Shown: piece after piece, positions 2,905-31,004 of the stretch
How the letters are laid out: each line of letters starts with the position of its first letter
Position numbering within the stretch: the stretch's first letter is position 1
Source of the DNA: Polyangiales bacterium
GTDB lineage: Bacteria; Myxococcota_A; Polyangia; Polyangiales; Polyangiaceae
Reading direction: 5' to 3'
NCBI GenBank assembly: GCA_038231275.1
Contig: JBBRLQ010000032.1
Location: 21,042-85,041, forward strand
Length of the DNA stretch: 64,000 nucleotides
Made by a program: the position numbers and the translations under genes
Notes under the pieces: model-generated
What the model saw: only the letters and a program-made list of their open reading frames with translations
Database searches by the model: none
Told to the model about the DNA's origin: nothing

Positions 2905-2961
2905 GAATCTCCTCGACCCTCGCCGGCGTCGTGCCTGCGAGTCGTGCAAACGGCTCGCTAG

Positions 2962-2977
2962 AGCAAGGCCGGTGCCG
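2962..2977 (-). promoter_or_regulatory. Putative sigma-54 (-24/-12) promoter
   Basis: Minus strand reads CGGCACCGGCCTTGCT, with exact GG-N10-GC spacing, about 60 nt upstream of the 2904 start. Confidence 0.6.
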
Positions 2978-3043
2978 CGCGACGATTTCCTGCGTTTCGG
3001 TGCCGCGAGGGTCGTTCAGTGCGCTCGAAGTGAATCGCGTGCG

Positions 3044-3556: not shown

Positions 3557-3568
3557 CCAACGAGTTCA

Positions 3569-4348
3569 TCACTCTGCCGGCGAAAAGACGAGCGGATAGA
3601 CGACCCACACCATCTTGTCGCCCGACGCGGAGAACGAGAGGTTCATGAATCCACGGACGACGCACGCGACCACGTCGGCGTCTCCGAGATCGGATCCTGC
3701 GTCAGACGCGCGCGTCACCGTGCCAGTCCCGTCGATCACGAACTTGACGGCGACGCGGCCCGCGAGCCTCGGGCGACGGCGAAGCCCCGCCTCGTAGCAG
3801 ACGCGGAAGCCCCCGTAGTGGGCGGTGACGACGCGCTTGATCGTCTCACCGGGCACGCGGCCGATCGACCTCGCGCCGGGCAGGCGCGCCATGACGTGCG
3901 CGCGACTCGTTCGCGGATGGCCGTCGAACGCGTCCAGATCGAACGCCGCGTCTCCTTTTCCGATCGTCGAGACGGTGGCGAGCGGCGCGGCCGGTCCGTC
4001 GTCCTCGTCGTCGTGATCGCGCACTTCGATCGGCCCATCGACGATGGATGAGGCCCACGGCACTGCGCCGGCCGGAGGGTCACGGCTCCACGGGCTCGGT
4101 TTCACCTTCGCCGCGCCATCGCGGCTGGACGACAGGAGGGCGAGCATTCCAAACGCCGCGATCTCCCGCTTGAGCTCCGCGCGGAATCGCGCTTTCGCCT
4201 CCTTCTCGGCAGCCTCATTCGCCGCGGTCTCGGTCGCCGAGAGAGGTCCGCTCTTGGCCGCCGCGGCGTCGTCGGCGCGCGCGATGCCGGGTGAGAGCAC
4301 CAGCGCGCAGATCAGCGCGCACGACGTCGGCGAAGACGCGAGGGTCAT
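3569..4348 (-). CDS. AgmX/PglI C-terminal (TonB_C-like) domain secreted protein
   Basis: IKRVVTAHYGGFRVCYEAGLRRRPRLAGRVAVKFVIDGTG...VVACVVRGFMNLSF...VVYPLVF; N-terminal signal peptide. Confidence 0.8.
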   Translation of the reverse strand: MTLASSPTSCALICALVLSPGIARADDAAAAKSGPLSATETAANEAAEKEAKARFRAELKREIAAFGMLALLSSSRDGAAKVKPSPWSRDPPAGAVPWASSIVDGPIEVRDHDDEDDGPAAPLATVSTIGKGDAAFDLDAFDGHPRTSRAHVMARLPGARSIGRVPGETIKRVVTAHYGGFRVCYEAGLRRRPRLAGRVAVKFVIDGTGTVTRASDAGSDLGDADVVACVVRGFMNLSFSASGDKMVWVVYPLVFSPAE

Positions 4349-4359
4349 GCATGGGCCAT

Positions 4360-4375
4360 CGCAATCGGCGTGCCC
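4360..4375 (-). promoter_or_regulatory. Putative sigma-54 promoter
   Basis: Minus strand GGGCACGCCGATTGCG (GG-N10-GC) just upstream of the 4348 start. Confidence 0.55.
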
Positions 4376-4517
4376 TGGCCATTCGCATGCCGGTCAGGTG
4401 TTTGCGGCGAAGTGACGGAGGGTGGTGCGGGGCGCGCGCGCATGTGAATTGCCCCGTGCCGGGACGTCAGAGGAGCACGTGAGGGCTTCGAGTCGCCGAT
4501 CGCTGGGAAAATGGCAG

Positions 4518-4533
4518 TGGCGCGACGGTTGCA
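4518..4533 (+). promoter_or_regulatory. Putative sigma-54 promoter
   Basis: TGGCGCGACGGTTGCA (GG-N10-GC) upstream of the AAGGAGG RBS and the 4567 start. Confidence 0.6.
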
Positions 4534-4566
4534 CTTTGCAATCGAGAACGAAGAAGGAGGCCCCCC

Positions 4567-4833
4567 GTGCTTCGCAGATCCCCGCTCGTCGGCGTCGGCG
4601 TCATCGCCGTCGCGCTCGCCCTCGCGGCGTGCACCAGCAGCTATCACCCCGAGTATCACCCCGTGTCGGTGAACAACGTCTCGCAGGACATCTCGTACCC
4701 CGTGGTCGTCAACGGCGGCGCCAGCCAAGGCGCGCGACCGGTGTACGTCGTGCCGGGCAGTCCTGGCGGCGGTCCGCCGATGGCGCCACCGCCGATGCCG
4801 CCGCCGCCGCCCGGTTTCTTCAACCCCGAGTGA
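4567..4833 (+). CDS. Small Pro-rich lipoprotein with HPEYHP motif
   Basis: AGGAGG RBS; lipobox LAAC; CTSSYHPEYHP; poly-Pro tail. Confidence 0.75.
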   Translation: MLRRSPLVGVGVIAVALALAACTSSYHPEYHPVSVNNVSQDISYPVVVNGGASQGARPVYVVPGSPGGGPPMAPPPMPPPPPGFFNPE

Positions 4834-4843
4834 GGTGCGCGAC

Positions 4844-5341
4844 ATGCGACGCAGCGTCGGCGTCTCGTACGGCGCGAGCGCGAGCGCGTGCGCGTGCGTC
4901 CTCTTCGCGTCGGCGTGCACACACGAGGTCCATCCCGAGTACCACCCCGAGGCGCGGTACTCGTACGTCCAAAATGTGACGTACGCCGAGAACGCGTGGA
5001 TCGCTCCACCGTCCTCGGCAGGCTCGCCTGGCGTCGCGCCGAGCCTCGAGTCGTCGTACGCGCTCGGCGCCGGAGGCGACACGTGCGAGGGGGGTCGCGC
5101 GCAAGCGTGCTGGCGCGAATGCTTCAAGGACGCCACCGGCGAGTCCTGCGCGCGCCTCGCCGACATGTTCGCGCGCGGCGACGGCGTCACGCGGAGCCCC
5201 GACAACGCGCGCCGCCTCGCGCAACGCGCCTGCGATCTCGGCACCTGTGGTCAGCGGCGCCCCGCCGCAGGGGTCGTCAGCTCGCCGGGCACGGTGATCG
5301 TCTACGGTGACTTCAACGGCAACGTCGTCCTCGGGCGCTGA
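4844..5341 (+). CDS. Lipoprotein with HPEYHP motif and a Sel1-like repeat
   Basis: GAGGTG RBS; ASAC lipobox; CTHEVHPEYHP; SCARLADMFARGDGVTRSPDNARRLAQRACDLG resembles Sel1/SLR. Confidence 0.7.
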   Translation: MRRSVGVSYGASASACACVLFASACTHEVHPEYHPEARYSYVQNVTYAENAWIAPPSSAGSPGVAPSLESSYALGAGGDTCEGGRAQACWRECFKDATGESCARLADMFARGDGVTRSPDNARRLAQRACDLGTCGQRRPAAGVVSSPGTVIVYGDFNGNVVLGR

Positions 5342-5365
5342 ATCGCCCCCACACGCGACAGCGAT

Positions 5366-6205
5366 TCAGCGAAGGACCTGGCCGACGACGACCTCGACGC
5401 GATCGCGATGACGGAGCCGCCCGCCCTCTTCGGCGACATGCCCGACCGCCGGGAGGTCCGCGCCGAGGAAGCGACGCCCGTGCGCCGCGAAGACCGCGGG
5501 ATCGCCGCTGCACAGGACGCGAAGGGCACCATCGCCAGGCGTGTCATAGTGCGGATGCCGGACGAGCCACTCGCGGAGGCGCGCGGCGAGGTAGGGCGCC
5601 GGGTCGAGGACCTTTGCGCGCGTCGCTCGCTCGAAGGCCGCAGCGAGGAGCGGGTAATGCGTGCACCCGAGGAGCAGTGTGTCGACGTCCTCGAGCCCCT
5701 CCATGTAACGCGCGACCGCTTGCCGTGCGATGTCGGTGTCCTCCCAGCCCTCTTCGACGAGTGGCGCGAGCAAGGGCGCGGCGCGCTGCGTGACCTTGTG
5801 CGTTCCCAGCTTCCGGATCTCCGTCTCGAACGTCCCCGACGCGACCGTGCGCGCGGTTCCGATCACGCCGATGTGACCCGCGCTCGCCGCGACCGCGACC
5901 TCTGCTGCCGGGATCGTCACGCCGAGCACACGCCGCGCGTCGCCCGGTCCGGCGTAGCGCGCTTGCAGATGGCGAAGCGCGACGCACGAGACCGTGTTGC
6001 ATGCGACGACGACGAGGCGGCACCCCTCCTCGAACAAACGCTCGGTGCACTGCTCGGCGAAATCGAGCAGGGTGCTCGTGTCGCGCCCGCCATACGGCGC
6101 GCGCCCCGAGTCGCCGAGGTAGATGAAATCGCGCTCCGGCAGCGCAGCGCGCAGCTGACGAAGGACCGTGAGCCCGCCGAAGCCCGAGTCGTAGACGCCG
6201 ATCAT
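5366..6205 (-). CDS. murI: Glutamate racemase
   Basis: IGVYDSGFGGLTV, DSGRAPYG, VACNT and LLGCTHYP motifs. Confidence 0.97.
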   Translation of the reverse strand: MIGVYDSGFGGLTVLRQLRAALPERDFIYLGDSGRAPYGGRDTSTLLDFAEQCTERLFEEGCRLVVVACNTVSCVALRHLQARYAGPGDARRVLGVTIPAAEVAVAASAGHIGVIGTARTVASGTFETEIRKLGTHKVTQRAAPLLAPLVEEGWEDTDIARQAVARYMEGLEDVDTLLLGCTHYPLLAAAFERATRAKVLDPAPYLAARLREWLVRHPHYDTPGDGALRVLCSGDPAVFAAHGRRFLGADLPAVGHVAEEGGRLRHRDRVEVVVGQVLR

Positions 6206-6235
6206 GTGCCGATCATCGAAATCTTACGAGACGCG

Positions 6236-7237
6236 TCATCGAATCCACAGCTTGGTGTCGCCGGTCTGTGAGAGACCGCCCTTGGGCTCGGTGGTGTCCT
6301 TCACGCCGGCCCATCCGCCGCCGTTGCCGTTGCACGAAGTCTGTCCCGACTGGGTCCCGCCGTAGTACGCGCCACGCCCGACCCAGCTCGCGCTATTGCA
6401 CCCGCAGCCCGTGTTGTTGTCGTCGAGCGGCACGACCGCCCAGCTCGTGTCGCCGGGCTTGATGTTGTTGTCGTGGGTCGCGACGCAGAGCTTGCCGCCG
6501 CCCGCCGAGCTCAGCCACCCCGACAGACGCGCGTCGTTCGTCGAGGTCTGAAGCAGAGGGACTGCGGTGTTCACGACGTTCGCGAAGAGATCGAAGCTGC
6601 CCGGACGGGTGAAGCGCACGTACGACGTGGCCCAGTCGACCCACACGTCCGTGTAGAGGCCGAGGAAGCGAACCCCGATGAGCCCCGATTGTCCGCCCGT
6701 CGCGATCGCGTTGGTGTTGCCGGTGTCGACGTCGAGGAAGCGGAACGTCCCCATTCCGCCGCTGATTTCTCGCCCGATCAGCGTCCAGCCGCCGCCGTCG
6801 ATGGTCATGTCGCACCAGACTTGGAAGGGCGCCTTCGGCCCCACGCCGTCGGGGTCTACGGTGTAGAGCCCGCTCGTGACGGGCGGCGGCGTCGTCGCGA
6901 GGATCTGCCTGCAGGTCGCCGCCGGCGGACAGCCTCCGACCGGGCACGCGTCGAACGGCGTCGTGTCGGTGGCGACGTCTTTGAGCGGTGCGTCGGCGGC
7001 AACGGCGCCATCGTCGGCGTCGAAGTCAGAGGCCCCGTCGCCCCCGGCGTCTACTAGAGGAGTCGTCCGGTCGACCGGAGCGTCGGTGGACACCCCGGGA
7101 CCCGCGTCGTCGGGTCCGTCGCCGGTACCCACGAGATCGAGCCCGCACGCGCCTGCCGACGAGAAGAAAAGAAGGGCCAGCGGCGGGAGGAGGACTGCCG
7201 CGCGACTGTGGCTCGCTTCTTTCGCTCTTCGGCGCAT
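6236..7237 (-). CDS. Lipoprotein with fibrinogen-like (YCDxxxxGGGW) domain
   Basis: Lipobox AGAC; TCRQI...SGLYTVDPDG...VWCDMTIDGGGWTLI. Confidence 0.8.
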   Translation of the reverse strand: MRRRAKEASHSRAAVLLPPLALLFFSSAGACGLDLVGTGDGPDDAGPGVSTDAPVDRTTPLVDAGGDGASDFDADDGAVAADAPLKDVATDTTPFDACPVGGCPPAATCRQILATTPPPVTSGLYTVDPDGVGPKAPFQVWCDMTIDGGGWTLIGREISGGMGTFRFLDVDTGNTNAIATGGQSGLIGVRFLGLYTDVWVDWATSYVRFTRPGSFDLFANVVNTAVPLLQTSTNDARLSGWLSSAGGGKLCVATHDNNIKPGDTSWAVVPLDDNNTGCGCNSASWVGRGAYYGGTQSGQTSCNGNGGGWAGVKDTTEPKGGLSQTGDTKLWIR

Positions 7238-7366
7238 ACGGCGTGTCCCATTCTAGCGCGTGGTCGCGCGATTCGATGGGCCCCGGGCGCCAAATGGGTG
7301 CGATTTGTAGGGGGTCCTGCGGTCGGATTTTCAAAATCCGTAACATGTCTCCATAATGGCGCTCCC

Positions 7367-8821
7367 GTGAACGTCCTGTTCGTCACCTCGGAGGTCGCGC
7401 GTTACGCCAAGACCGGCGGCCTCGGTGACGTCGCCGCGGCGCTGCCGACCTACCTGCGCAAGGCCGGTCACGACGTGCGCACGTTCATGCCGCTCTACAA
7501 GACGGTGGACGCGAAGGGGGCGAACGTCGAGCCGCTCTTCCGCGACGTCCCGATCCAGCTCGGCCCGCACCGCTACACGATCGGCGTGTTCGTCGCCGAG
7601 CGGCCTGCCGCCGCGCCCGTCTACCTCGTCGACTGCCCGGCGCTCTACCACCGCCCCGGCCTCTACACCGGCGATCCCGACGAGCACATCCGCTTCCTCG
7701 TCCTCTCGCGCGCCGCCCTCGAGATTTGCCAGCGCATGGGATTTTCTCCCGACGTCGTGCACTGCAACGACTGGCAGACCGCGCTCCTCCCGCTCACGAT
7801 CGACACGCGTTACCGCTGGGACCGCATCTTCGCCAAGACGCGCACGCTCCTCACGATCCATAACATCGGCTACCAGGGCACCGTCGGCCCTCAGGCGATC
7901 GGCGACGCGGGTCTCGCCGACTCCGCCAACCTGTTCCACCAGGACCAGCTCAAAGACGGCCGCGTCAATTTCCTCCTCCACGGCATTCTGTACGCCGACG
8001 GCGTCAGCACCGTCAGCCCCACGTACGCGCGCGAGATCCAGACACCCGAGTACGGCGTCGGTCTCGATGGATTCTTGCGCGCGCGGAGCGGCAGCGTCAT
8101 CGGCATCCTCAACGGCGTCGACTACGACGAGTGGAGCCCCGAGAAGGACACGCTCATCCCGCACCGCTACAGCGCGCAGGATCTGTCCGGCAAGGTGAAC
8201 GACAAGGAGACGCTCCTCACGAAGATGGGCCTCCCGCATGTGCAGGGCGTGCCGGTCATCGGCATCGTCTCGCGCCTCGTCGGGCAGAAGGGCTTCCGCC
8301 TCCTCGAGGGCGTGATGCCCGCGCTCCTCCGGCGCCACCGCGTGCAGCTCACTGTGCTGGGCAGCGGCGAGCGGCGCCTCGAGCGCATGTTCAGCGCATG
8401 GGAGCGCGCGTTCCCGAAGCAGGTCGCGTTCTACCGCGGCTTCTCGAACGAGCTCGCGCACCTCATCGAGGCGGGGGCCGACATGTTCCTCATGCCGTCG
8501 CTCTACGAGCCGTGCGGCCTGAACCAGATGTACAGCCTCCGCTACGGCACCGTCCCGATCGTCCACGCCACCGGAGGCCTCGCCGACTCGGTGAAGCTGT
8601 GGGATCCCGACACCGGCAAGGGCACCGGCATCTCGTTCGCGAACCACGACGCGCGCGCGGTCAAATGGGCGATCGAAGCCGCGCTCACGCTCTACGATGA
8701 CAAAGCCGCGTGGCGGCGCTTGATGCAAAATGGAATGGCCGAGGACTTCTCCTGGGACACCCAGGCGAAGGTGTACGAGCGCGTCTATTCGCGCCTCGTC
8801 GCGGGAGGGGGGAAAGGCTGA
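7367..8821 (+). CDS. glgA: Glycogen/starch synthase (GT5, ADP-glucose type)
   Basis: SEVARYAKTGGLGDV, HCNDWQT, TIHNIGYQG, SRLVGQKG and MPSLYEPCGLNQMYSLRYGT motifs; GTG start at 7367. Confidence 0.96.
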   Translation: MNVLFVTSEVARYAKTGGLGDVAAALPTYLRKAGHDVRTFMPLYKTVDAKGANVEPLFRDVPIQLGPHRYTIGVFVAERPAAAPVYLVDCPALYHRPGLYTGDPDEHIRFLVLSRAALEICQRMGFSPDVVHCNDWQTALLPLTIDTRYRWDRIFAKTRTLLTIHNIGYQGTVGPQAIGDAGLADSANLFHQDQLKDGRVNFLLHGILYADGVSTVSPTYAREIQTPEYGVGLDGFLRARSGSVIGILNGVDYDEWSPEKDTLIPHRYSAQDLSGKVNDKETLLTKMGLPHVQGVPVIGIVSRLVGQKGFRLLEGVMPALLRRHRVQLTVLGSGERRLERMFSAWERAFPKQVAFYRGFSNELAHLIEAGADMFLMPSLYEPCGLNQMYSLRYGTVPIVHATGGLADSVKLWDPDTGKGTGISFANHDARAVKWAIEAALTLYDDKAAWRRLMQNGMAEDFSWDTQAKVYERVYSRLVAGGGKG

Positions 8822-8823
8822 TC

Positions 8824-10047
8824 ATGCACATCGTGTTCGTCGAGCCGCGATTTCCGGCAAATCAGAAATTGTTCATCAAGGGCCTCGCCGAAATCGGCGT
8901 GACGATCACCGCCATCGGCGAGGGCTCGAAAGACTCGCTCGACGACGACCTCAAGAAGTGGCTCACGCACTACCACGAGGTCACCAACGTCACCTCCGAG
9001 AGCCAGATGCTCGACGCGGTGCGCTGGGTTCAAGGACGCGCGCACGTCGATCGGCTCGAAGCGACCATCGAAGCGCACATCATGCCGGTGGCGAAGGTGC
9101 GCGAGGCGGCGGGCATCCCCGGCACCAGCGTCAAGACCGCCTACCTATGCCGCGATAAGCCGGCGATGAAGGAGGTGCTCCGCAAAGGCGGCGTGCCGTG
9201 TGCGCAGTCGACCGGCGTGTCGACCGCGAAGGAGGCGATGGAGTTCGCCGAGCAGGTCGGCTTCCCGCTCATCTTGAAGCCGCGCGACGGCGCCGGCGCA
9301 TCGGGTGCCGCGCGCGCCGACTCGATGGCCGAGCTCGGACCCGCGCTCGAGTCGCTCGGCGTAGGCCACCCCGGCCGCAGCATCGCAATCGAGGAGTACA
9401 TCGAGGGGCACGAGGGCTTCTACGACACGCTCTCGATCAACGGCACGATCGTCCACGACTTCGCGTGCCACTACTTCCCGAACGTCCTCGAAGCGATGCG
9501 GACGCGCTGGATCTCCCCGCAGTTCGTCTCCACCAACCGCATCGACGGCGAGACGTACGGCGAGGTGAAGACGCTCGGCAAGAAGGTCATCGAGCTCCTC
9601 GGCATCGAGACCTCGGCGACCCACATGGAGTGGTTCTTCGGCCCCAAAGGCCTCAAATTCTCGGAGATCGGCTGCCGTCCGCCGGGCGTGCGCGCGTGGG
9701 ATCTCTACAACGTCGGCAACGACATGGACCTCTACCGCGAGTGGGCGATGGCGGTCTGTCACGGCCGCCCGAGCCAGCGCGCGTCGCGGCGCCTCTCCGC
9801 CGGCATCATCGCGCTGCGGCCGAGCTGCGACGGCCACATCATCGGCTACGATGGGCTCGAGACGATCGGCAAGGCGTTCGGCCCGAACATCATCGATTTC
9901 CACACGCCCCCCGAGGGCACGCCCACCCAGCCCGTCTCCGCCGGCTTCATGGCGAACGCCTGGGTCCGCTTGAAGCACGAGAACTACGACGAGCTACGCC
10001 GTATGCTGGATGTCGTCGGACAGACCGTGAAAGTGCATGCCAGGTAA
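8824..10047 (+). CDS. ATP-grasp amidoligase (paralog 1)
   Basis: RDKPAMK, GFPLILKPRDGAGASG, IEEYIEG, THMEWF and EIGCRPPG motifs; ATG 2 nt after the glgA stop. Confidence 0.9.
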   Translation: MHIVFVEPRFPANQKLFIKGLAEIGVTITAIGEGSKDSLDDDLKKWLTHYHEVTNVTSESQMLDAVRWVQGRAHVDRLEATIEAHIMPVAKVREAAGIPGTSVKTAYLCRDKPAMKEVLRKGGVPCAQSTGVSTAKEAMEFAEQVGFPLILKPRDGAGASGAARADSMAELGPALESLGVGHPGRSIAIEEYIEGHEGFYDTLSINGTIVHDFACHYFPNVLEAMRTRWISPQFVSTNRIDGETYGEVKTLGKKVIELLGIETSATHMEWFFGPKGLKFSEIGCRPPGVRAWDLYNVGNDMDLYREWAMAVCHGRPSQRASRRLSAGIIALRPSCDGHIIGYDGLETIGKAFGPNIIDFHTPPEGTPTQPVSAGFMANAWVRLKHENYDELRRMLDVVGQTVKVHAR

Positions 10048-10056
10048 GTTGCCACG

Positions 10057-10977
10057 ATGACCGTCGTCCTCACTGGACCGCAGTATGTCTTGCCGCACGT
10101 GGGGGGCGTGCTTCGTGAGCTGAAGGTGCGCGGTCCGGTGGCCGTCGTGACCGCGGGCTGGCAAGAGCGCGAGACCGATCCGGGCCTCGTCCCCGAGCTC
10201 GGCCTGCCGACGGTGAACCTGACGCTCCACTCGCGCGCCGAGGACCTGTTCGCGAAGGACAAGGAATTCGGTGCAGCCTACAAGGAACGCCAGACGCGCC
10301 TGCGCCTCATGCAGGACTTCTACCGCGTTCGCCTCGATCATGCCCGCGACGCCGCGCACGCCATCTCGGTGCGCCACGTCGACTCGTTGCTGCTCGACGA
10401 CGAGCGTCGATCGTCGATCGACGCCGTGCGCAGCCTCGATCGCGACCACCTCGCGCGGTGCGCCACCGTCAGCTCCGCGTTCGACGAGAAGTGGCCGCTC
10501 GCCGCGCGCGAGAGCATCGAGCGGCAGAAGAAGGAGCTCACCGCACTCCTCGCCCCGACCGACGCGGTGCTCATCGCCGGCGGGCACGTCGCGGTGCTCC
10601 TCAATCGCCTCAAGCTCTTCGATCTGATGACGCTCATCGGCAACCGCACGATCGTCGCGTGGTCGGCGGGGGCGATGACGCTGTGCGAGCTCGTCGTCCT
10701 TTTCCACGAGAACCCGCCGCACGGGCAGGGGGGCGCGGAGCTGCTCGATCGCGGCCTCGGCGTCGTGAAGGGCGTCGCGGTGCTGCCGAGCCCGCGACTT
10801 CGCTTGCGCTTGGACGATCCGATCAACGTCGGCAACTTCGCGCGGCGCTTCGAGCCGCTCGCGTGCGTGACGCTCGATCACGGCGCGCGCCTCGTTGCCA
10901 AGCGCGGCAAGGTCGTCGCCGGCGCGGTCACGCAGCGGCTCCTCCCGGACGGCAGCATCCAGCGGGGGTGGCCGTGA
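10057..10977 (+). CDS. Peptidase S51 (PepE/cyanophycinase)-like, class I glutamine amidotransferase fold protein
   Basis: AVLIAGGHV, WSAGAM Ser-nucleophile motif, GLGVVKGVAVLP. Confidence 0.75.
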   Translation: MTVVLTGPQYVLPHVGGVLRELKVRGPVAVVTAGWQERETDPGLVPELGLPTVNLTLHSRAEDLFAKDKEFGAAYKERQTRLRLMQDFYRVRLDHARDAAHAISVRHVDSLLLDDERRSSIDAVRSLDRDHLARCATVSSAFDEKWPLAARESIERQKKELTALLAPTDAVLIAGGHVAVLLNRLKLFDLMTLIGNRTIVAWSAGAMTLCELVVLFHENPPHGQGGAELLDRGLGVVKGVAVLPSPRLRLRLDDPINVGNFARRFEPLACVTLDHGARLVAKRGKVVAGAVTQRLLPDGSIQRGWP

Positions 10978-12113
10978 GCGGCGCGCGCGCGATCGAGAAG
11001 TTCCTCGCAGGCCCGCACACGACGGCCGCGGTCGACGCGTTCCTGGCGTCGAACACGTTCCCCATCGTCGAGGGCTCGCAGATCACCTTCGTGTACAAGG
11101 GCGTCGCCGACGCGGTGCACTTGAAGCACTGGGTCTACGGCCTGCCGTCGTCGCAGACGCTCGCGAAGGTCGACGGCGTCGATCTCTGGCACCTGACCCT
11201 CGGCGTGCCTGCCAAATCGCGCATCGAGTACAAGCTCGAGGTCGTCCGCGGCGGCAAGGGCGAGTGGATGGAGGATCCCCTCAACGCGAGCCGCGCGCGC
11301 GATCCGTTCGGCGCCAACTCGGTCGCGCACGGCGAGGGCTACCAAACGCCCGACTACATCGAGCGCGATCCCGAAGCCCGCACCGGCCTCGTCGACGAGG
11401 TGATGCTCGACAGCAAGGCGCTCGGCCGCCGCACGTTCGGCCTCTACTTGCCGGCGCGCTACCGGAAGAGCCGGCGCTACCCGCTCCTCGTCGTCCACGA
11501 CGGACACGACTACCAGAAGTACGCGCGCCTCCAGGTCGTGCTCGACAACCTCATTCACCGGCTGGAAATCCCCGACATCGTCGTCTGCATGACGAGCTCG
11601 CCCGATCGCCTCGTCGAGTACGCGAACGACGAACGTCACGCGCGTTTCCTCACGGAAGATCTCGTCCCTCATCTCGAGAAGACGCTCCCGCTCGAAGCGC
11701 GCCCGCAGGGACGCTGCCTCATGGGCGCGAGCTTCGGCGCCGTCGCCGCCCTCGCCGCCGCGTGGCGGAACCCCGGATTTTACGGGCGCCTCCTCCTCCA
11801 ATCCGGCTCGTTCGCCTTCGCCGACATCGGCGCGCGCAACCACCGCGGCCCGCTCTTCGATCCGATTGTGCGGTTCGTGAACGATTTTCGCGCCGATCCG
11901 ATCGCGGTGAGCGAGAAGGTCTTCGTCAGCTGCGGCACCTACGAGTCGCTCATCTACGAGAACCGCTCGCTGGTCCCGGTGCTCGAGGGGACGGGCATGG
12001 ACGTCCGGTATGTCGAGGCCCGGGACGGCCACAACTGGGAAAATTGGCGGGATCGTCTCCGGGAGGGCCTGTCGTGGCTGTTTCCGGGGCCTCTCCTGCT
12101 GGTATACGAGTGA
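10974..12113 (+). CDS. Fes-like esterase with N-terminal CBM48/E-set-like domain
   Basis: N-domain ITFVYKG...LWHLTLGVPAKSRIEYKL...DPLN; YPLLVVHDG; GASFGA nucleophile elbow; GHNWENW; GTGA overlap with the upstream gene. Confidence 0.88.
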   Translation: MSGARAIEKFLAGPHTTAAVDAFLASNTFPIVEGSQITFVYKGVADAVHLKHWVYGLPSSQTLAKVDGVDLWHLTLGVPAKSRIEYKLEVVRGGKGEWMEDPLNASRARDPFGANSVAHGEGYQTPDYIERDPEARTGLVDEVMLDSKALGRRTFGLYLPARYRKSRRYPLLVVHDGHDYQKYARLQVVLDNLIHRLEIPDIVVCMTSSPDRLVEYANDERHARFLTEDLVPHLEKTLPLEARPQGRCLMGASFGAVAALAAAWRNPGFYGRLLLQSGSFAFADIGARNHRGPLFDPIVRFVNDFRADPIAVSEKVFVSCGTYESLIYENRSLVPVLEGTGMDVRYVEARDGHNWENWRDRLREGLSWLFPGPLLLVYE

Positions 12114-12126
12114 AGGGAGGCTTCGC

Positions 12127-13371
12127 ATGGCCCACGTGACACGCAGGATCGGTCTGTCTCTCGGCGCCGATATCTGCTGGCCGATTTGTTACGAAGAGAT
12201 CGTGAAGCGGCTCGCCCTCTCGGTGCCGCATGCGGGGGATACCGTCGGCGTCGAGGTCGAGCGCGTGACGATCGAGCCGTTCGATCTCCGCCAACCGTGC
12301 CGCTACGACGTCGTCGTCGATCGGCTGACGCACTGGTACCACCCGAGCCGCGAGTGGATAAAAAAGGCCGTCCTCATGGACGACCTCTACGTCTTCAACA
12401 ATCCCTGGTCCGTGCAGTCCATGGAGAAGCAGACGACGTACTGCGCCATGATGCACCTGGGGATGCCGATCCCGGAGACGTGGCTCGTGCCGCCGAAGTC
12501 GTACGAGGCACTCCCCGATCTCGGCCCCACGCTGAAGAGCTACGCCAAGCTGTTCGACCTCGGCGCCGTCGGCAACGAGCTCGGCTACCCGATGTTCATG
12601 AAGCCGTACGACGGCGGCGGCTGGAAGGGCGTGAGCCGCATCGCCGACGAGGCGGCCCTGCGCGCGCGCTACGACGAGAGCGGCAAGCTCGTCATGCACC
12701 TGCAGAAGGCGGTCGAGCCGTTCGATCGCTTCATCCGCTGCATCGGCTTCGGGCCGCAGACCAAAATAGTCCGCTACGATCCTGGCGCGCCGCTCCACGA
12801 TCGCTACACGATGGACAAGAACTTCGTGTCGGACGACGAGGCGCAGGTGCTGCGCGACACGACGCTCACGATCAACGCGTTCTTCGGCTGGGACTTCAAC
12901 TCGTGCGAGGCGCTCAGCAAAGACGGCGTCTGGTTCCCGATCGACTTCGCGAACCCGTGCCCCGACTCGCAGGTGACGTCGCTCCACTACCACTTCCCGT
13001 GGGTCGTGATGGCGAACGTGCGGTGGTCGCTCTACTGCGCGGTCACCAACCGTAAGATGCGGCGCACGCTCGACTGGGACCCGTTCTACGAGGTCGCCAA
13101 GAAGGATCTGCCGTACCGGGACAAGCTGCGCGCGTACGCAAAGATCGCGAACGAGCGCTTCGAGACCGCGCAGTTCGAGGAGTTCTGCGGCACGCACCTC
13201 GCGAACCTCGACGAGATCGCGTGGGAGTTCTTCGGCACGCAGACCGCGAAAGACGCCGTGCGCAAGAAAGTGACCGCGCTCTTCCCGCCCGCCGAGGTGG
13301 AGCAGTTCACCGAGCTCTTCTGGAATCGCATCGGCGCGTGGCGCACCGACATGAAGTCGGGGGCCCGATGA
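12127..13371 (+). CDS. RimK/glutathione-synthase-like ATP-grasp protein
   Basis: GGGAGG RBS; VVDRLTHW, NNPW...EK, PETWLVPPK, GYPMFMKPYDGGGWKGV and IDFANPCPD motifs. Confidence 0.88.
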   Translation: MAHVTRRIGLSLGADICWPICYEEIVKRLALSVPHAGDTVGVEVERVTIEPFDLRQPCRYDVVVDRLTHWYHPSREWIKKAVLMDDLYVFNNPWSVQSMEKQTTYCAMMHLGMPIPETWLVPPKSYEALPDLGPTLKSYAKLFDLGAVGNELGYPMFMKPYDGGGWKGVSRIADEAALRARYDESGKLVMHLQKAVEPFDRFIRCIGFGPQTKIVRYDPGAPLHDRYTMDKNFVSDDEAQVLRDTTLTINAFFGWDFNSCEALSKDGVWFPIDFANPCPDSQVTSLHYHFPWVVMANVRWSLYCAVTNRKMRRTLDWDPFYEVAKKDLPYRDKLRAYAKIANERFETAQFEEFCGTHLANLDEIAWEFFGTQTAKDAVRKKVTALFPPAEVEQFTELFWNRIGAWRTDMKSGAR

Positions 13372-14108
13372 GCGAATGGAAGACGAGCGCGAAGTGGTTT
13401 TCGGAGCGCGTCCAACGTGAGGTCACGATGGTCCGTTGGGGCACCGTCGGCCAGCCCGTCCTCCTCTTCCCGACCGCCGGCGGCGACGCGGAGGAGATCG
13501 AGCGCTTCCACATGATCACGGTCTTGAAGCCGCTCCTCGAGGCCGGCAAAATCAAGATCTACTCGTGCGACAGCGTCGCCGGCGCCGCGCTCCTCTCGCG
13601 CGAGAAGAACGCGCGCCACCAAATGTGGCTCCAGAACCAGTTCCATCAGTACCTCCGGCACGAGGTGGTGCCGGCGATCCGCAAGGACTGCGAATCGTCC
13701 GACATGGAGGTGTGGGCCGCCGGCGCGTCGATCGGCGCGTTCCACGCCGTCGCGATGGTTTGCCGCTTCCCCGACGTTTTCGCGCGCGCGTGCGCGATGT
13801 CGGGCACGTTCGACATTCGACGCTTTTACGACGCGACCGAGTTCACCGACGATTTCTGGGTCTCCTCCCCGATCCACTTCGTGCCGACGCTGTCGGGTCC
13901 GCACCTGGACAAGCTCCGAACCCGGTACATCCTGATGCCGTCGGGCGAAGGGAGGGCCGAGGACATCGGCGAGTCGTGGCGAATGGGGAACGCGCTCGGC
14001 AAGCAAGGCGTGCCGAACCGCGTCGATCCGTGGGGCGCGCACGTGCCGCACGACTGGGAGACGTGGCGCAAGATGCTCCCGCAATACCTCGGGGAATGGA
14101 CGAAGTAA
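13368..14108 (+). CDS. Esterase family alpha/beta-hydrolase
   Basis: PVLLFPTAGG, GASIGAFHA and HDWETW motifs; ATGA overlap. Confidence 0.88.
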   Translation: MSEWKTSAKWFSERVQREVTMVRWGTVGQPVLLFPTAGGDAEEIERFHMITVLKPLLEAGKIKIYSCDSVAGAALLSREKNARHQMWLQNQFHQYLRHEVVPAIRKDCESSDMEVWAAGASIGAFHAVAMVCRFPDVFARACAMSGTFDIRRFYDATEFTDDFWVSSPIHFVPTLSGPHLDKLRTRYILMPSGEGRAEDIGESWRMGNALGKQGVPNRVDPWGAHVPHDWETWRKMLPQYLGEWTK

Positions 14109-14109
14109 G

Positions 14110-16065
14110 ATGACCACCACGCGCTCGCACAAGCAGGTCGACCAGGAGCAAGACGCGCAGGCGCGACGCGAGTTCATGCACGCCATCCTGGCGGACTTGC
14201 GCGCCCTCGAGCGGATGCTCGCCGAGGGGATGTTCGAGAAAGGCGTGCGGCGCGTGGGCGCGGAGCAGGAGATCTTCCTCCTCGATCCCAGCTGGTACCC
14301 GGCGCGCGGCGTCCTCCAGATGCTGGAGAAGCTCTCGGACCCGCACTTCACGACCGAGCTCGGGCAGTTCCAGCTCGAGGCGAACTGCGATCCCCAGCCG
14401 TTCGGTGGTATCGGGCTGTCGCTCCTCGAGAAGCAGCTCGACGGCCTCGTCGACAAGGCGCGACTGGCGGCGGCCGAGCTCGGCATGCGAACCGTGCTCA
14501 TGGGCATGCTGCCCACCATCCGCAAAGAGGATCTGTGTCTCGAGGCGATGGTCCCGAGCCCGCGCTACCTCGCCATCAACAAGGCCATGTTCGACCTGCG
14601 CGGCGGCGCGTTCGACTTCTCGATCAAGGGCCTCGACGAGCTCATCATCCAGCACGACTCGGTGATGGTGGAGGCGTGCAACTCGAGCTTCCAGGTCCAC
14701 CTCCAGGTCGACGCCGACGAGTTCGCGCGCATGTACAACCTGTCGCAGCTGCTCGCGGCGCCGATGGTGGCGCTGTCGTGCAACTCGCCGCTGCTCTTCG
14801 GCAAGCGCTTGTGGGCGGAGACACGCATCGCCCTCTTCAAGCAGGCGGTGGACACGCGCAGCCACACGCACCACCTCCGCGAGAGCGAGGCGCGCGTGAA
14901 CTTCGGCACGCGCTGGGTCAAGGACTCGGTCCTGGAGATTTACCAGGAAGACGTCGCGCGCTTCCGCACGCTCGTCGGCACCGATCTCGACGAGGATCCC
15001 ATGGCCAAGCTGGACCGCGGCGAGGCGCCGCTCCTCAAGGCGCTGCGCCTCCACAACGGCACAGTCTACCGCTGGAACCGCGCTTGCTACGGCATCATGG
15101 ACGGCAAGGCGCACCTGCGGATCGAGAACCGCGTCATGCCGGCCGGCCCGAGCGTGGTGGACGAGGTCGCCAACGGCGCCTTCTGGTTCGGCGTCATGGT
15201 GGAGATGGGCGCGAAGGAAGAGGACATCACCCGCAAGATCGACTTCGATCAGGCGGGCGCCAACTTCTACACCGCCGCGCGCGAGGGGCTCGGCGCGAAC
15301 TTCACCTGGCTCGACCAGAAGGATCTCTCGGCCGATCGCCTCGTGCTCGATCAGCTCATGCCGCTCGCCGAGGCGGGGCTCCGTCGCCAGAAGATCGCCG
15401 AGGATGACATCAAGAGATACCTCGGCGTCGTCGACGCGCGCGTTCGGTCGGGACGCACCGGCACCAAGTGGCAGATGACCTCCTGGAACGCGCTCAAGGA
15501 CAAGGCGACGCCCGCCCAGCGCGCGAGCGCCCTCGTTGCGGCGACGGTCGACCGGCAGGCGACGCGGCGCCCGGTCGCCGAGTGGGAGCGCGCACGCCTC
15601 GACGAGGCGGGCGACGAGTCGGCTCGCAACTACATGCGCGTGGACCAGTACATGGCCACCGACCTCTTCACCGTGCAGGAGGACGACCCCATCGAGATGG
15701 TCGTCAACCTCATGACCTGGGAGCGCATCCGCCACGTGCCGGTGGAGGACAAGGAGCGGCGCCTCATCGGCCTCATCTCGTACCGCTCGGTGCTGCGCTT
15801 CCTGGCGGCCGGTCGCTCGCTGAAGGACACGCCGGTCAGCGCGATCATGAAGAACGAAGTGACGACCGTGACGCTCGAGACGCCCACGGTCGACGCGATG
15901 CGCCTCATGCGGAAGCTCCGGGTGGGCTGCCTGCCCGTGGTCCACGAGGGTCGGCTCGTGGGTCTCCTGACCGACGAAGACTTCATGAACATCGCGACGA
16001 AGCTCCTCGAGCAGAGGCTGGCGAGTGGCTCCAGCGAACCCGAACGCGAGCCCGAGAGGACCTGA
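14110..16065 (+). CDS. Glutamate-cysteine ligase family 2 (GCS2) carboxylate-amine ligase fused to a C-terminal CBS pair
   Basis: VGAEQEIFL, ELGQFQLE, SFQVHLQ, YRWNRACY and RIENRVMP motifs; CBS repeats IRHVPVED...IGLIS and VGCLPVV...VGLLTDED. Confidence 0.88.
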   Translation: MTTTRSHKQVDQEQDAQARREFMHAILADLRALERMLAEGMFEKGVRRVGAEQEIFLLDPSWYPARGVLQMLEKLSDPHFTTELGQFQLEANCDPQPFGGIGLSLLEKQLDGLVDKARLAAAELGMRTVLMGMLPTIRKEDLCLEAMVPSPRYLAINKAMFDLRGGAFDFSIKGLDELIIQHDSVMVEACNSSFQVHLQVDADEFARMYNLSQLLAAPMVALSCNSPLLFGKRLWAETRIALFKQAVDTRSHTHHLRESEARVNFGTRWVKDSVLEIYQEDVARFRTLVGTDLDEDPMAKLDRGEAPLLKALRLHNGTVYRWNRACYGIMDGKAHLRIENRVMPAGPSVVDEVANGAFWFGVMVEMGAKEEDITRKIDFDQAGANFYTAAREGLGANFTWLDQKDLSADRLVLDQLMPLAEAGLRRQKIAEDDIKRYLGVVDARVRSGRTGTKWQMTSWNALKDKATPAQRASALVAATVDRQATRRPVAEWERARLDEAGDESARNYMRVDQYMATDLFTVQEDDPIEMVVNLMTWERIRHVPVEDKERRLIGLISYRSVLRFLAAGRSLKDTPVSAIMKNEVTTVTLETPTVDAMRLMRKLRVGCLPVVHEGRLVGLLTDEDFMNIATKLLEQRLASGSSEPEREPERT

Positions 16066-16992
16066 ATGGCGAGGGTGGAGACGATGGAAAGCGCGCGCCT
16101 CATCGATCGACTCGTCGGCGACGAGGCCGGCCCCACGCTCATCCTGGTGGGCGGCATGCACGGCAACGAGCCCGCCGGTGTGAACGCCGCGCGCGACGTC
16201 CTCTCCGCACTCCGCGTGTCCGGCGCAAGTGTGCGCGGCGAGGTCGTGGCATTCGCCGGCAACGTCCGCGGGCTCGCCGCCAAGACGCGCTACCTGTCGC
16301 GCGATCTGAACCGCATGTTGACCGCCGAGCGTGTCGCCGCGTCGCGCGCCACCGAGGAGCCGCAGGCCGAGGTCGCCGAGGTCGTCGAGCTCGCCGCCGC
16401 GATCGACGAGGCGATAGCTCGCGCGCGCGGCCCGGTCTACGCGATCGACATGCACACGACGTCGGCGTCCGGCGTCCCGTTCAGCGTCGTCGGCAACAAC
16501 GACGCGCGTCGCGAGTTCGCCCGCAACTTCCACATCCCCGGCCTCGTCGGCCTCGAGGAGGCGCTCGAGGGCGTCCTCACGAGCTACCTCGCGACGATCG
16601 GCTGCGTGACGATGGCTGTAGAGGGCGGCCAACACGAGAGCGTCGACGCTGCCGCCAGCCTCGCGGCGGTCGTCACGATCGCGCTGAGGGCGACCGGCAT
16701 CGTCCGCGCCGAAGATCTCCCCGGTCTGGAAGCCGCCGAGGCCGACCTCTCTCGCGCGCGCGGAGAGCTCCCTCCTCTGATCGCGGTCCTCACGCGCTAC
16801 GCCGTGGAGCCCGAGCTCGGATTCCAAATGGAGCCCGGCTTCGCGAACATCCAGCCGACGCCGCGCGGCACCTTGATCGCCAAAGACGGCAAAGGGGACA
16901 TTCGCGCGCCGTTCGACGGCCTCGTCCTCCTCCCGCTCTACCAAGCGCAGGGCAACGACGGCTTCTTCTTCGGCCGCCCGCTCCGCGACTGA
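16066..16992 (+). CDS. Succinylglutamate desuccinylase/aspartoacylase family (M14) Zn-hydrolase
   Basis: GGMHGNEPAG, RDLNR, IDMHTTS and VEGGQH motifs; starts directly after the upstream stop. Confidence 0.9.
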   Translation: MARVETMESARLIDRLVGDEAGPTLILVGGMHGNEPAGVNAARDVLSALRVSGASVRGEVVAFAGNVRGLAAKTRYLSRDLNRMLTAERVAASRATEEPQAEVAEVVELAAAIDEAIARARGPVYAIDMHTTSASGVPFSVVGNNDARREFARNFHIPGLVGLEEALEGVLTSYLATIGCVTMAVEGGQHESVDAAASLAAVVTIALRATGIVRAEDLPGLEAAEADLSRARGELPPLIAVLTRYAVEPELGFQMEPGFANIQPTPRGTLIAKDGKGDIRAPFDGLVLLPLYQAQGNDGFFFGRPLRD

Positions 16993-17215
16993 CGATCGCG
17001 CCCTGGTACACACATGCAGACTGCATGCATACCCACCGAACGGGTGTGCGCGGCGTTATGACGTTTCCCCCCAAAACGGCCCCGAAGAGTCGACTGGGGA
17101 TGGATGAGATGAGACTGAAAGCGTAGTCACTAGCGTGGGCGTGACGCGTGCGCCTGTCGGTCTGCGCGCGAAAGCCAGCATCTCACCCCGGTGCCCAACA
17201 GCCTGCGGGAGTCCA

Positions 17216-18745
17216 ATGTCCAAGCACCTCTCGACCCACGTGGTCCTCGGTATCGCGGTTTCGTCCGCCTTTGCGTTCGCCCTCGGCTGCAGCAGCAGCA
17301 GCGGCGCGGACGGTGAGCCGTCGGCCGTAACGGCCGCCGACCTTCAAGGTGCGTGGAGCGACACGCCGCGCGCACATCACGGCGTCGTGGACCCCGGGGT
17401 GCGCGCGGGTGTCCCCGGCGCGGGCGGGATCATGACTGGCACGAACGCGAACGAAGCGGCGCTCTGGGGCGAGGGCCGCTTTCGATCGACCGAGGTCGAG
17501 GCCACGTGCGACACGTGCGCGGACTTCGATCCGGGCAGCCCCAAGCCGCCGGGCGCGCCCGACGACGCGACGAACTCCGCGGGGCTCGGCGCCCGCTTCA
17601 ACAGCAACACCTGCACGCCCGGCTGTCACTCGCAGCCCGCGCTCGGAGGCACGTCGCCGTTCAAGAACCCCTCGTTCGCCGCCGCGACGGCGAAGGGCGC
17701 CACCAACGTCGTCCCCTTCTTCGAGACGCTCGACGGCCCGACGCGCGAGGTCCGCTTCCAGTTCAACCCCGACGGCACGCGTGATGGCGGCGTCCACCAG
17801 AAGTTCAGCGTGCGCGGCCGCTCCGACGCGCCGTCGTGCACGAACCTCGGCCAACCCGACTTCGAGGCGAACCGCGGGAACATGTCGTTTCGGATCCCGA
17901 CTCCGATGTTCGGCCTCGGGATCATCGACTCGCTGCCCGATGCCGAGATCCTGAAGTACAAAGCGGCCAACCCGGGTCGTAAGCGAGAGCTCGGAATTCA
18001 CGGCGTCGCCAACACGAACGGCAACGACGGGACGATCACGCGGTTTGGCTGGAAGGCGCAGAACAAGTCGATCACGATTTTTTCGGGCGAGGCCTACAAC
18101 GTCGAGATGGGCGTCACCAACGAGCTCTTCCCGCAGGCGAAGGTCGAGAACTACGATTGCAACCTGGGCGCGGAGCCGAACGACGTGACGCGCACCGGAA
18201 CGTCCGGCGACTCGAACTTCAACAACCCGCTCGAGGTCATGTCCGACTGGATGATGTTCTCGCTGTTCATGCGCTTCACCGATCAGCCGAAGCCGGTGCC
18301 GTTCGACGCGAGCGCGCAGCGCGGCCTCGATGCGTTCAACCAGATCGGCTGCAGCGAGTGCCACGTTCCGTCGATGACGACGCGCTCGGGCCCCACCGGC
18401 CCGCAGTCGGACGCGCTCAAGGGCGTGACGGCGAACCTCTACTCGGATCTCCTCGTCCACCACATGGGCGCCGGTCTCGCCGACAACATCCTCCAGGGCG
18501 GCGCGGGCCCCGACCAGTTCCGCAGCGCTCCGCTCTGGGGCGTGGGCCAGCGCATCTTCTTCCTCCACGACGGGCGCGCGCGCTCTCTCGTCGAGGCGAT
18601 CCTCGCCCACTATTCGCCGGCGTCGCACGGGCACGGCAACTCGCCCGCCTATCCGGCGTCGGAGGCGAACCAGGTCATTCGCAACTTCGCGGAGCTCTCT
18701 GCGTCCGAGCAGCAGGACATCGTCAACTTCCTCCGCTCGCTCTGA
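17216..18745 (+). CDS. Di-heme oxidoreductase (DHOR/DUF1111-like, bCcP/MauG superfamily) lipoprotein
   Basis: Lipobox ALGC; GLGARFN, CTPGCH, RFGWKAQ, AYNVEMGVT, CSECH, YSDLLVHHMG and FRSAPLWG...LHDGRA motifs. Confidence 0.88.
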   Translation: MSKHLSTHVVLGIAVSSAFAFALGCSSSSGADGEPSAVTAADLQGAWSDTPRAHHGVVDPGVRAGVPGAGGIMTGTNANEAALWGEGRFRSTEVEATCDTCADFDPGSPKPPGAPDDATNSAGLGARFNSNTCTPGCHSQPALGGTSPFKNPSFAAATAKGATNVVPFFETLDGPTREVRFQFNPDGTRDGGVHQKFSVRGRSDAPSCTNLGQPDFEANRGNMSFRIPTPMFGLGIIDSLPDAEILKYKAANPGRKRELGIHGVANTNGNDGTITRFGWKAQNKSITIFSGEAYNVEMGVTNELFPQAKVENYDCNLGAEPNDVTRTGTSGDSNFNNPLEVMSDWMMFSLFMRFTDQPKPVPFDASAQRGLDAFNQIGCSECHVPSMTTRSGPTGPQSDALKGVTANLYSDLLVHHMGAGLADNILQGGAGPDQFRSAPLWGVGQRIFFLHDGRARSLVEAILAHYSPASHGHGNSPAYPASEANQVIRNFAELSASEQQDIVNFLRSL

Positions 18746-19786: not shown

Positions 19787-21691
<1,905 letters not shown>

Positions 21692-25046: not shown

Positions 25047-25069
25047 GGGGCGCATGCTACAACGGGGTC

Positions 25070-30932: not shown

Positions 30933-31004
30933 GCCGCTCTCTACCATCGGCGTCCGCCGCGTTCGAGCGGTGATCGCGACGTCCGCGGCGTTCGCGGACG
31001 TCGA

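Follow-up and report, generated by a model that had tools for sequence, protein, structure and literature searches.

We analysed a 64,000-nucleotide (nt) stretch of the Polyangiales bacterium assembly GCA_038231275.1 (contig JBBRLQ010000032.1, positions 21,042 to 85,041 of the forward strand; the whole stretch is hereafter called the window). It has a base composition of ~68% G+C and carries, on its plus strand at 7367–16992, eight genes that begin with a glycogen synthase gene, glgA, and that we call g1 to g8. A first-pass annotation of the sequence had read them as one operon, a candidate system for decorating alpha-glucan with peptides or for storing nitrogen. We confirmed that the operon is real and that it represents a broadly conserved, undescribed module whose linkage to alpha-glucan genes is seen in a large proportion of carriers. 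The list of open reading frames (ORFs) reproduces exactly the spacings first given for the eight co-oriented genes (2, 9, −4, 13, −4, 1 and 0 nt from g1 to g8), and the domains assigned to them agree with Pfam and NCBIfam, except that the S51 match of g3 lies below its cut-off and that g5 has no Pfam match. The window was also said to lack glgB, glgC, glgP and glgX; glgC, glgP and the best GH13 matches indeed lie on other contigs, and no separate search for glgX was made. The eight members stand, but the set is not complete, as graspA and graspB, another pair of conserved ATP-grasp genes, are located at 23829–26284. The features are as follows.

7367–8821, + strand: g1, GlgA paralogue (GT5, ADP-glucose-type glycogen synthase), assigned by Pfam, NCBIfam and clade
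8824–10047, + strand: g2, L-amino-acid-ligase-type ATP-grasp, assigned by Pfam, NCBIfam and solved relatives; the usual direct neighbour of glgA
10057–10977, + strand: g3, S51-like protein (cyanophycinase/PepE family) with a helical insert, assigned by family-level S51 matches
10974–12113, + strand: g4, Fes-like two-domain serine esterase with an E-set/CBM48-like N-domain, a PF00756 domain and a C-terminal [VI]YE tail
12127–13371, + strand: g5, ATP-grasp without a Pfam family, RimK/ArgX/LysX-like fold; marker gene of the module
13368–14108, + strand: g6, small PF00756 serine esterase, assigned by Pfam and the invariant S121/H228
14110–16065, + strand: g7, GCS2-type carboxylate-amine ligase with a CBS pair, optional member, assigned by Pfam and NCBIfam
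16066–16992, + strand: g8, AstE/AspA-type zinc deacylase, optional member, assigned by Pfam, NCBIfam and solved relatives
23829–25046, − strand: graspA, second L-amino-acid-ligase-type ATP-grasp, conserved, outside the range first described; start placed by likeness to paralogues
25070–26284, + strand: graspB, third L-amino-acid-ligase-type ATP-grasp, conserved and divergent from graspA
7328–7357, + strand: promoter-like site TTTTCA-18-CATAAT, a consensus match only, ending 10 nt before the glgA start

The starts of g1, g2, g4, g5 and g6 were chosen in frame within longer reading frames and fit the N-termini of homologues in alignments. None of the eight N-termini, read by eye from the translations, resembles a signal peptide.

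Conservation of the module and its linkage to alpha-glucan genes

Using g5 as the marker, we confirmed 425 relatives in a collection of species genomes (one genome per species). The locus counts given here refer to the best 80 of these 425, which are 64–92% identical to the g5 of the window; as 34 of the 80 loci are full 21-kb stretches, counts of membership are lower bounds. A phylum could be assigned to 74 loci, distributed over Myxococcota (43), Planctomycetota (13), Acidobacteriota (6), Pseudomonadota (5), Eiseniibacteriota (5), Binatota (1) and Actinomycetota (1). In a large protein collection, 5781 cluster representatives match g5 at an E-value of at most 1e-10, and those with a name are nearly all called “hypothetical protein”. 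Within taxa the distribution of the g5 family is patchy: it was found in 6 of 31 close relatives, in 49 of 201 Myxococcota genomes (≥90% complete) and in 35 of 301 sampled Actinomycetota, a count that includes six genomes flagged as unpublished. Full-text literature searches, judged from titles and the openings of abstracts, yielded no description of this gene set.

The other members accompany g5 to different extents. Among the 80 loci, g4 is present in 67, g3 in 62, g6 in 58, g2 in 46, g7 in 37, g1 in 33 and g8 in 14, while orthologues of graspA (≥44% identity) and graspB lie beside the module in 27 and 25, respectively. Genes g1 to g7 occur together in 23 of the 80 loci and all eight in 8 of them; g7 and g8 form an optional tail of the module. 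We searched five genomes in which the first locus shows g3-g4-g5 only. Four of them have a g2 orthologue elsewhere, and in three of these four we found a second cluster in which the pair glgA-g2 is divergent from two or three graspA/B paralogues. These split loci indicate that the system is composed of two halves, one with glgA and the L-amino-acid-ligase-type enzymes, and the other with g3-g4-g5-g6. The smallest recurring unit is one ATP-grasp with two serine esterases. Twenty actinobacterial loci with more distant g5 homologues (42–61% identity) mostly hold just this triad, in the order esterase, esterase, ATP-grasp.

At least one alpha-glucan gene (encoding GlgA, a divergent GT5, GlgB, GlgE, a debrancher, a GT3-phosphorylase fusion or PGI) is present in 22 of the 34 full 21-kb loci. 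Most of the glucan-linked loci carry GlgA. Where a g2 orthologue was found with enough room to judge (43 loci), glgA is located directly upstream of it on the same strand in 26 cases, and a GT5 gene occurs elsewhere in the locus in seven more. Other lineages have different enzymes. A far-divergent GT5 is encoded in loci of Planctomycetota and Holophagae (L056, L068, L070), two of which (L056 and L068) also possess a debrancher and a 1413-residue fusion of a GT3 glycogen synthase with a phosphorylase. We further found GlgB in one Binatia and one Eiseniibacteriota locus and PGI in an acidobacterial locus (L051). In an actinomycete (L060), the module is flanked by glgB and glgE, and a phosphorylase gene is close by. 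The planctomycete fusion, at 2684–6922 (+) of L056 and found in L068 and L065 as well, joins a GT3-type glycogen synthase, DUF3417 and an alpha-glucan phosphorylase, next to the debrancher and the module.

The first-pass annotation had named a lack of conserved linkage as evidence against its interpretation. Among close relatives we found the linkage conserved, in 22 of 34 full loci and in several phyla, so that this objection falls for them; in the distant actinobacterial triads, the linkage is weak (2 of 20 loci). The annotation’s interpretation is therefore supported in part, in that the operon exists and its linkage to glucan genes persists from phylum to phylum even though the glucan enzymes differ.

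The linked GlgA proteins are themselves distinctive in their phylogeny. The source genome contains three GlgA genes above the family cut-off; its relatives with g5 have two to three GlgA matches, compared to a mean of 1.0 in the 25 relatives without g5. In a quick maximum-likelihood analysis (44 rows, midpoint root, branch support only by the Shimodaira–Hasegawa-like approximate likelihood ratio test, SH-aLRT), 22 linked GlgA from four phyla and one row labelled unlinked formed a single clade with an SH-aLRT of 90. Eighteen Myxococcota rows, 16 unlinked and two undecided, formed a second one (SH-aLRT 84), and the divergent GT5 genes branched far outside both. This topology suggests, although only suggests, since the tree holds no unlinked GlgA of other phyla, that the linked GlgA travelled together with the module. 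The row labelled unlinked inside the linked clade is the GlgA at G027:C215:17360-18796 (L113). The label reflects the absence of a g5 match in its genome, which is 92% complete, and the gene may be the remnant of a lost module.

In the window, the −10 element of the promoter-like site ends 10 nt before the GTG start codon of glgA, which would make the transcript leaderless or nearly so. The pattern scan yielded two overlapping matches before glgA against 0.6 expected, and no promoter-like match inside the operon. The probable start codons of the divergent graspA and graspB are separated by ~23 nt (25046–25070), leaving almost no space for two promoters and leaders. Just upstream of glgA lie genes for an Asp/Glu racemase (PF01177; 5366–6205, −) and a secreted protein with a fibrinogen-C-like stretch (6236–7237, −), and downstream follow genes for a di-haem oxidoreductase (DHOR; 17135–18745), a Ser/Thr protein kinase (19787–21691) and a DUF885 protein (29118–31004). 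The racemase, fibrinogen-like protein, di-haem oxidoreductase and kinase as well as the ORF at 22419–23762 were rejected as members, because among the 80 loci they are kept only in that of the same genus (L078). The DUF885 gene is likewise not conserved with the module.

Enzymes of the module

The central ATP-grasp g5 has no Pfam match, and none of its family scores exceeds a cut-off in Pfam or NCBIfam; the scores for LysX_arch (19.6 bits, cut-off 275.6) and rimK_fam (16.7 bits, cut-off 143.4) are faint. Its predicted model, with a predicted local distance difference test (pLDDT) score of 82.6, consists of an ATP-grasp fold and a C-terminal helical extension of ~100 residues. Compared with 48,161 PDB representatives, it is nearest to RimK (4iwx; Z 18.1, root-mean-square deviation (rmsd) 3.0, 260 residues aligned), followed by synapsin (Z 17.4), ArgX (3vpb; 17.3), PPIP5K2 (17.1), LysX/ArgX (5k2m; 16.6) and ITPK1 (16.5). 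In total, 68 representatives reached a Z of at least 8, and all of the best 50 are ATP-grasp enzymes. K159, E261, D273 and N276 are invariant in 29 sequences, and by analogy would be the ATP-grasp lysine and metal ligands. In the same number of sequences, from several phyla, the cysteines C17, C21, C260 and C278 are invariant, and these might mark a metal site. We discarded apparent fusions of g5: long frames around it in three genomes are genes in different frames, and its longer relatives are only five singleton proteins that look like read-through gene calls. The frame of a few g5 homologues (G232:C6:17405-18634, G030:C193:2263-3495 and several from actinobacteria) is interrupted by one TGA or TAG, which could be due to sequencing errors or broken copies.

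The best solved relatives of g2 are L-amino-acid ligases, with sequence matches from 4e-13 (4wd3) to 6e-8. Partial matches to NCBIfam cyanophycin synthetase models reach 35–41 bits against cut-offs of 850–877. The protein is well conserved, with a mean column identity of 72%. Paralogues of the graspA/graspB type possess ATPgrasp_N domains and, in one case, LAL_C2. In g7, GCS2 (PF04107) was matched in two stretches at 39.4 bits (cut-off 21), together with two CBS domains at 86.9 bits; for its residues 1–490, sequence searches found no solved relative.

The esterase g4 matches PF00756 (Esterase) at 70.3 bits and, weakly, Enterochelin_N in Pfam. Its S253, within GASFG, E324 and H353 are invariant in 29 sequences. 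The predicted model is confident (pLDDT 92.2) and over residues 10–376 has its best fold match in Fes (3mga; Z 34.1, rmsd 3.0, 346 aligned). CBM48-CE1 feruloyl/acetyl-xylan esterases come second (Z 27.4, rmsd 5.1, ~315 aligned); their matches cover both domains and have the best Foldseek E-values, 3e-25 to 4e-23. S-formylglutathione hydrolases appear in the list at a Z of ~20–22. The label “CBM48/Fes-like esterase” in the first-pass annotation is borne out by fold. The second esterase, g6, matches PF00756 at 39.7 bits, with S121 (in GASIG) and H228 invariant in 21 sequences.

A peculiarity of g4 is its C-terminus, which reads [VI]YE directly before the stop codon in 62 of 70 homologues. Of the others, four end in TYM or TYL at equal length, one ends in YD, and in three the tail is missing. 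None of the other seven proteins has a constant C-terminus. In the g4 model only the last four residues have a pLDDT below 50. Gene g3 lies immediately upstream in all 63 assessable loci with a tailed g4 (four loci offered too little room to judge), but in none of the three tail-less loci, which belong to two alphaproteobacteria and one actinomycete. Because the losses of the tail represent two evolutionary events at most, this association is a lead rather than proof. On the simplest reading, the tail would dock g4 to g3. A bolder one is that g5, whose gene always has g4 just upstream, might act on the tail in the manner of RimK or LysX and ligate something to it. In this regard, g5 has an H289F exchange in the four loci with a Met or Leu tail, while His occupies this position in 72 of 73 other sequences compared and is likewise kept in the three tail-less loci. 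The exchange and the altered tail belong to a single lineage.

Gene g3 matches Peptidase_S51 (PF03575) in Pfam at 18.3 bits, under the cut-off of 23.9. At the family level, 23 of 26 homologues match S51 at an E-value of at most 0.01 (best 2.8e-10), and in the Atlas clusters nearest to g3, 21–43% of the members have PF03575; sequence and profile searches of the PDB with g3 found no S51 entry. The presumed nucleophile, in the motif W-S-A-G-A-M, is Ser in 23 of the 26 homologues, Cys in one (L052) and Ala in two (L012, L014), and H217 is invariant. The S51 triad includes a nucleophilic Ser in an elbow of the G-x-S-A-G type and a His. For g8, AstE_AspA_cat (PF24827) scored 71.9 bits (cut-off 25), and the best solved relatives are a succinylglutamate desuccinylase (1yw6; 4e-5) and aspartoacylase. 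Its translation contains an H-G-N-E motif, presumably the H-x-x-E zinc motif of AstE/AspA deacylases, and later D-M-H-T.

The glycogen synthase g1 matches TIGR02095 over residues 1–476 of 477 at 533.4 bits (cut-off 328.45) and Glyco_transf_5 (PF08323) at 250 bits. Its score falls under the cut-offs of the narrower NF0019xx equivalog models. K15, G17, G18 and L19 of the KTGGL motif and E381 are invariant in 17 linked GlgA; the N-terminal K-T-G-G-L and a conserved C-terminal Glu are motifs of GlgA.

Candidate functions

Gene content, order, conservation, linkage, folds and intact catalytic motifs are established, and from them we infer substrates, ester chemistry and attachment to a glucan. Our preferred reading, to which we assign a probability of about 0.35, is that the module makes a reversible amino-acid-derived (aminoacyl or peptidyl) ester or amide group on or beside glycogen. 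In this scheme, g5 would activate a carboxylate and form a bond, most likely an ester, and the serine esterases g4 and g6 would cut it again. The L-amino-acid-ligase-type enzymes g2, graspA and graspB and the CBS-regulated GCS2 ligase g7 would build or extend the amino-acid part, which the S51-like g3 and the AstE-like g8 would trim. The most likely hydroxyl acceptor would be the alpha-glucan of the linked GlgA, giving a reversibly aminoacylated or peptidylated glycogen.

Several observations lead to this scheme. The smallest unit, an ATP-grasp flanked by serine esterases, suggests that the bond made by the ATP-grasp is an ester; some ATP-grasp enzymes are known to form esters, such as D-Ala-D-Lac ligases and the macrolactone ligases of graspetides. 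The esterases would then be cutters of this ester, and not loaders, a role that the first-pass annotation had allowed besides release. The amino-acid ligases, GCS2, S51-like and AstE-like proteins of the extended form indicate that the acyl part is most likely an amino acid or short peptide. What enzymes of the S51 and AstE/AspA families are known to act on hints weakly at Asp or Glu. Glucan is favoured as the hydroxyl partner by the linkage, the dedicated GlgA clade, the CE1-CBM48-like architecture of g4 (CBM48 is a family of glycogen-binding modules) and the cytoplasmic location. A Ser or Thr side chain is favoured by Fes as the best match of g4 and by the triads without glucan genes. More tentatively still, the chains of the dedicated GlgA might be esterified with amino acids or peptides by the ATP-grasps and stripped by the Fes/CE1-like esterases and their S51-like partner, with the CBS ligase setting the rate by energy state; the product would be a covalent carbon–nitrogen reserve.

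A number of findings weigh against a modified glucan. For g4, a Pfam match to CBM_48 is lacking, and hhalign aligned the matching region with the CBM48 of GlgB at no significance (probability 0.09, E 0.57). Its best fold match, Fes, cuts seryl esters of siderophores rather than sugar esters. The fold scores of g5 are effectively tied, so that the fold cannot tell a protein-tail ligase from a kinase-like enzyme. In the two myxobacterial g3 homologues in which the nucleophile is Ala (L012, L014), the remainder of the protein is conserved. The GlgA tree covers only part of the glgA-holding loci, includes one row with an internal stop and draws its unlinked GlgA solely from Myxococcota. Moreover, a single column discriminates linked from unlinked GlgA and the catalytic motifs are ordinary, so nothing marks the linked GlgA as a special transferase. 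A glucan gene is absent from 12 of the 34 full loci and, within 20 kb, from 18 of the 20 actinobacterial triad loci. In the complete Myxococcota genome G180, the only strong GT5 gene is located 2 Mb from the module. There, g3–g6 and graspA/B lie within 35 kb, and g2-like genes 30–260 kb away. Finally, all counts are inflated by kinship.

A close second is a separate reserve beside glycogen and unattached to it, either a cyanophycin-like oligo- or polypeptide or a Ser/Thr-lactone-like oligo-ester, with the linkage reflecting co-regulation of carbon and nitrogen stores. We regard this as possible, if short of probable. It fits the assignment of 23 of 26 g3 homologues to S51, the family of cyanophycinase and PepE, the proximity of g4 to Fes, a cutter of amino-acid esters, and the CBS pair of g7, which suggests control by energy state; operons for storage compounds commonly hold synthetic and degradative enzymes side by side, and the 18 actinobacterial triads without glucan genes would be expected. 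However, neither a CphA-type synthetase nor a Mur-ligase-like domain is encoded in the cluster or its flanks. The link is, moreover, to a dedicated GlgA clade and to a glgA-g2 pair that persists even when the system is split, and not to glgC, the usual control point of glycogen synthesis, and co-regulation leaves the linkage to GlgE/GlgB in the actinomycete and to GT3 and the debrancher in planctomycetes unexplained. The product could instead be a soluble small molecule (an osmolyte, a low-molecular-weight thiol or a glucosylated peptide), for instance a gamma-glutamyl-type peptide, with the PF00756 proteins as (thio)esterases like esterase D. Pointing in this direction are GCS2 as the family of glutamate-cysteine ligases, the S-formylglutathione hydrolases in the fold list, the CBS pairs known on osmolyte transporters (NCBIfam matches of the proV and OpuC type) and an MscL gene adjoining the module in L066. 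We nevertheless consider it rather unlikely, as g7 and g8 are optional, the neighbours are enzymes of polymers (GlgB, GlgE, debrancher, phosphorylase) and not single-sugar transferases, and g4 is far nearer to Fes and CE1 (Z 34 and 27) than to esterase D (Z 20).

The patchy distribution, a high identity across phyla suggestive of block transfer, and the missing linkage in G180 and the 18 actinobacterial loci would also agree with a module that has no chemical relation to glucan and stands next to glgA through shared ancestry and joint horizontal transfer of the block. This is improbable in our view: non-homologous glucan enzymes were recruited in different lineages (GT5, divergent GT5, GT3 fusion, GlgE, GlgB, debrancher), glgA and g2 remain joined when the system splits, and 22 of 34 loci with a glycogen gene compares with a few per cent estimated for a random 21-kb stretch. 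We give the least credence to g5 being a RimK/LysX/ArgX-like protein-tail ligase that modifies the C-terminal Glu of g4 as a switch or carrier arm, with g3 removing the addition. The ranking of RimK, ArgX and LysX among the nearest folds of g5, the constant position of g4 just upstream of it, the conserved and poorly ordered g4 end next to seven variable C-termini, its co-occurrence with g3 (63/63 versus 0/3) and the H289F exchange in the Met/Leu-tailed loci all speak for it. On the other hand, g5 keeps all of its near-invariant columns in the three loci with a tail-less g4, H289F and the tail losses can be traced to one or two evolutionary events, and the g4 tail is hydrophobic, whereas those of S6 and LysW are acidic. 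Plain docking of g4 to g3 accounts for the co-occurrence equally well, and the fold matches of g5 tie with kinases, too.

What the present analysis adds to the first-pass annotation is the division into two halves, the separate clade of linked GlgA, the counter-sample from actinobacteria, the ranking of folds and the association of the g4 tail with g3. Few bacterial pathways are considered as well understood as glycogen metabolism, and here up to ten enzyme genes, five of them for ATP-dependent ligases, are linked in at least seven phyla to genes for glycogen synthase, branching enzyme or GlgE. If the glucan is decorated, this would change the chemical meaning of “glycogen” in soil and sediment bacteria and provide a new enzymatic route for placing amino acids onto polysaccharides; aminoacylation of glycogen by an ATP-grasp would be the first such case for a storage polysaccharide. 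If the reserve is separate, the module would constitute a new system for a non-ribosomal amino-acid polymer or oligo-ester.

Comparison with known systems

Among known systems, cyanophycin metabolism (CphA1 with the S51 hydrolase CphB) shares with the module an ATP-grasp chemistry for non-ribosomal amide bonds and an S51-type hydrolase next to the ligases, both of them putative in the module, as well as the cytoplasmic location and the logic of a reserve. In contrast, the L-amino-acid-ligase paralogues of the module, three to four in number, stand alone, and they are accompanied by a RimK/LysX-like ATP-grasp, a pair of PF00756 esterases and the linked GlgA. We found no Mur-ligase domain and no CphA-type synthetase in the eight genes, the flanks in the window and 98 flanking ORFs of 14 loci, which rules out a cyanophycin system proper.

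The resemblance of g4 to Fes (3mga, 3c87, 2b20) includes the two-domain fold, the PF00756 catalytic domain and the weak Enterochelin_N match. Fes is cytoplasmic, as g4 appears to be from its N-terminus. However, g4 is only 20% identical to Fes, always has an ATP-grasp as its companion and ends in a conserved YE tail that is associated with an S51-like protein; no genes for siderophore synthesis or uptake were found near the module, in the window or in the flanks of related loci. The CBM48-CE1 esterases (8bf3, 6rzn, 7b5v, 6ne9) combine a carbohydrate-binding N-domain with an esterase domain that takes acyl esters off a polysaccharide, an architecture that g4 probably shares. These feruloyl/acetyl-xylan esterases act on xylan outside the cell, whereas g4 has no readable signal peptide and no CBM_48 match and sits among glycogen genes.

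With RimK and with LysX/ArgX and their carrier LysW, the module has in common the nearest solved folds of g5 and a neighbouring protein, g4, with a conserved C-terminal Glu. It differs from them in the missing family-level sequence score of g5, its helical C-terminal extension of ~100 residues, fold scores that tie with those of synapsin and inositol-phosphate kinases, and the lack of a LysW-like small protein. The L-amino-acid ligases RizA (4wd3), BacD (3vmm) and BL00235 (3vot) are matched by g2 in sequence and resembled by its paralogues in the ATPgrasp_N and LAL_C2 domains. Known enzymes of this type belong to antibiotic or dipeptide pathways, while here three unusually conserved paralogues travel with a glycogen synthase.

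The methylglucose lipopolysaccharide of mycobacteria offers a precedent, being a cytoplasmic alpha-1,4-glucan with ester-linked acyl groups that involves a dedicated glucosyltransferase paralogue. Its acyl groups, short fatty acids and succinate, are transferred by acyltransferases acting together with methyltransferases, whereas the module described here lacks genes of these kinds and uses ATP-grasp ligases instead.

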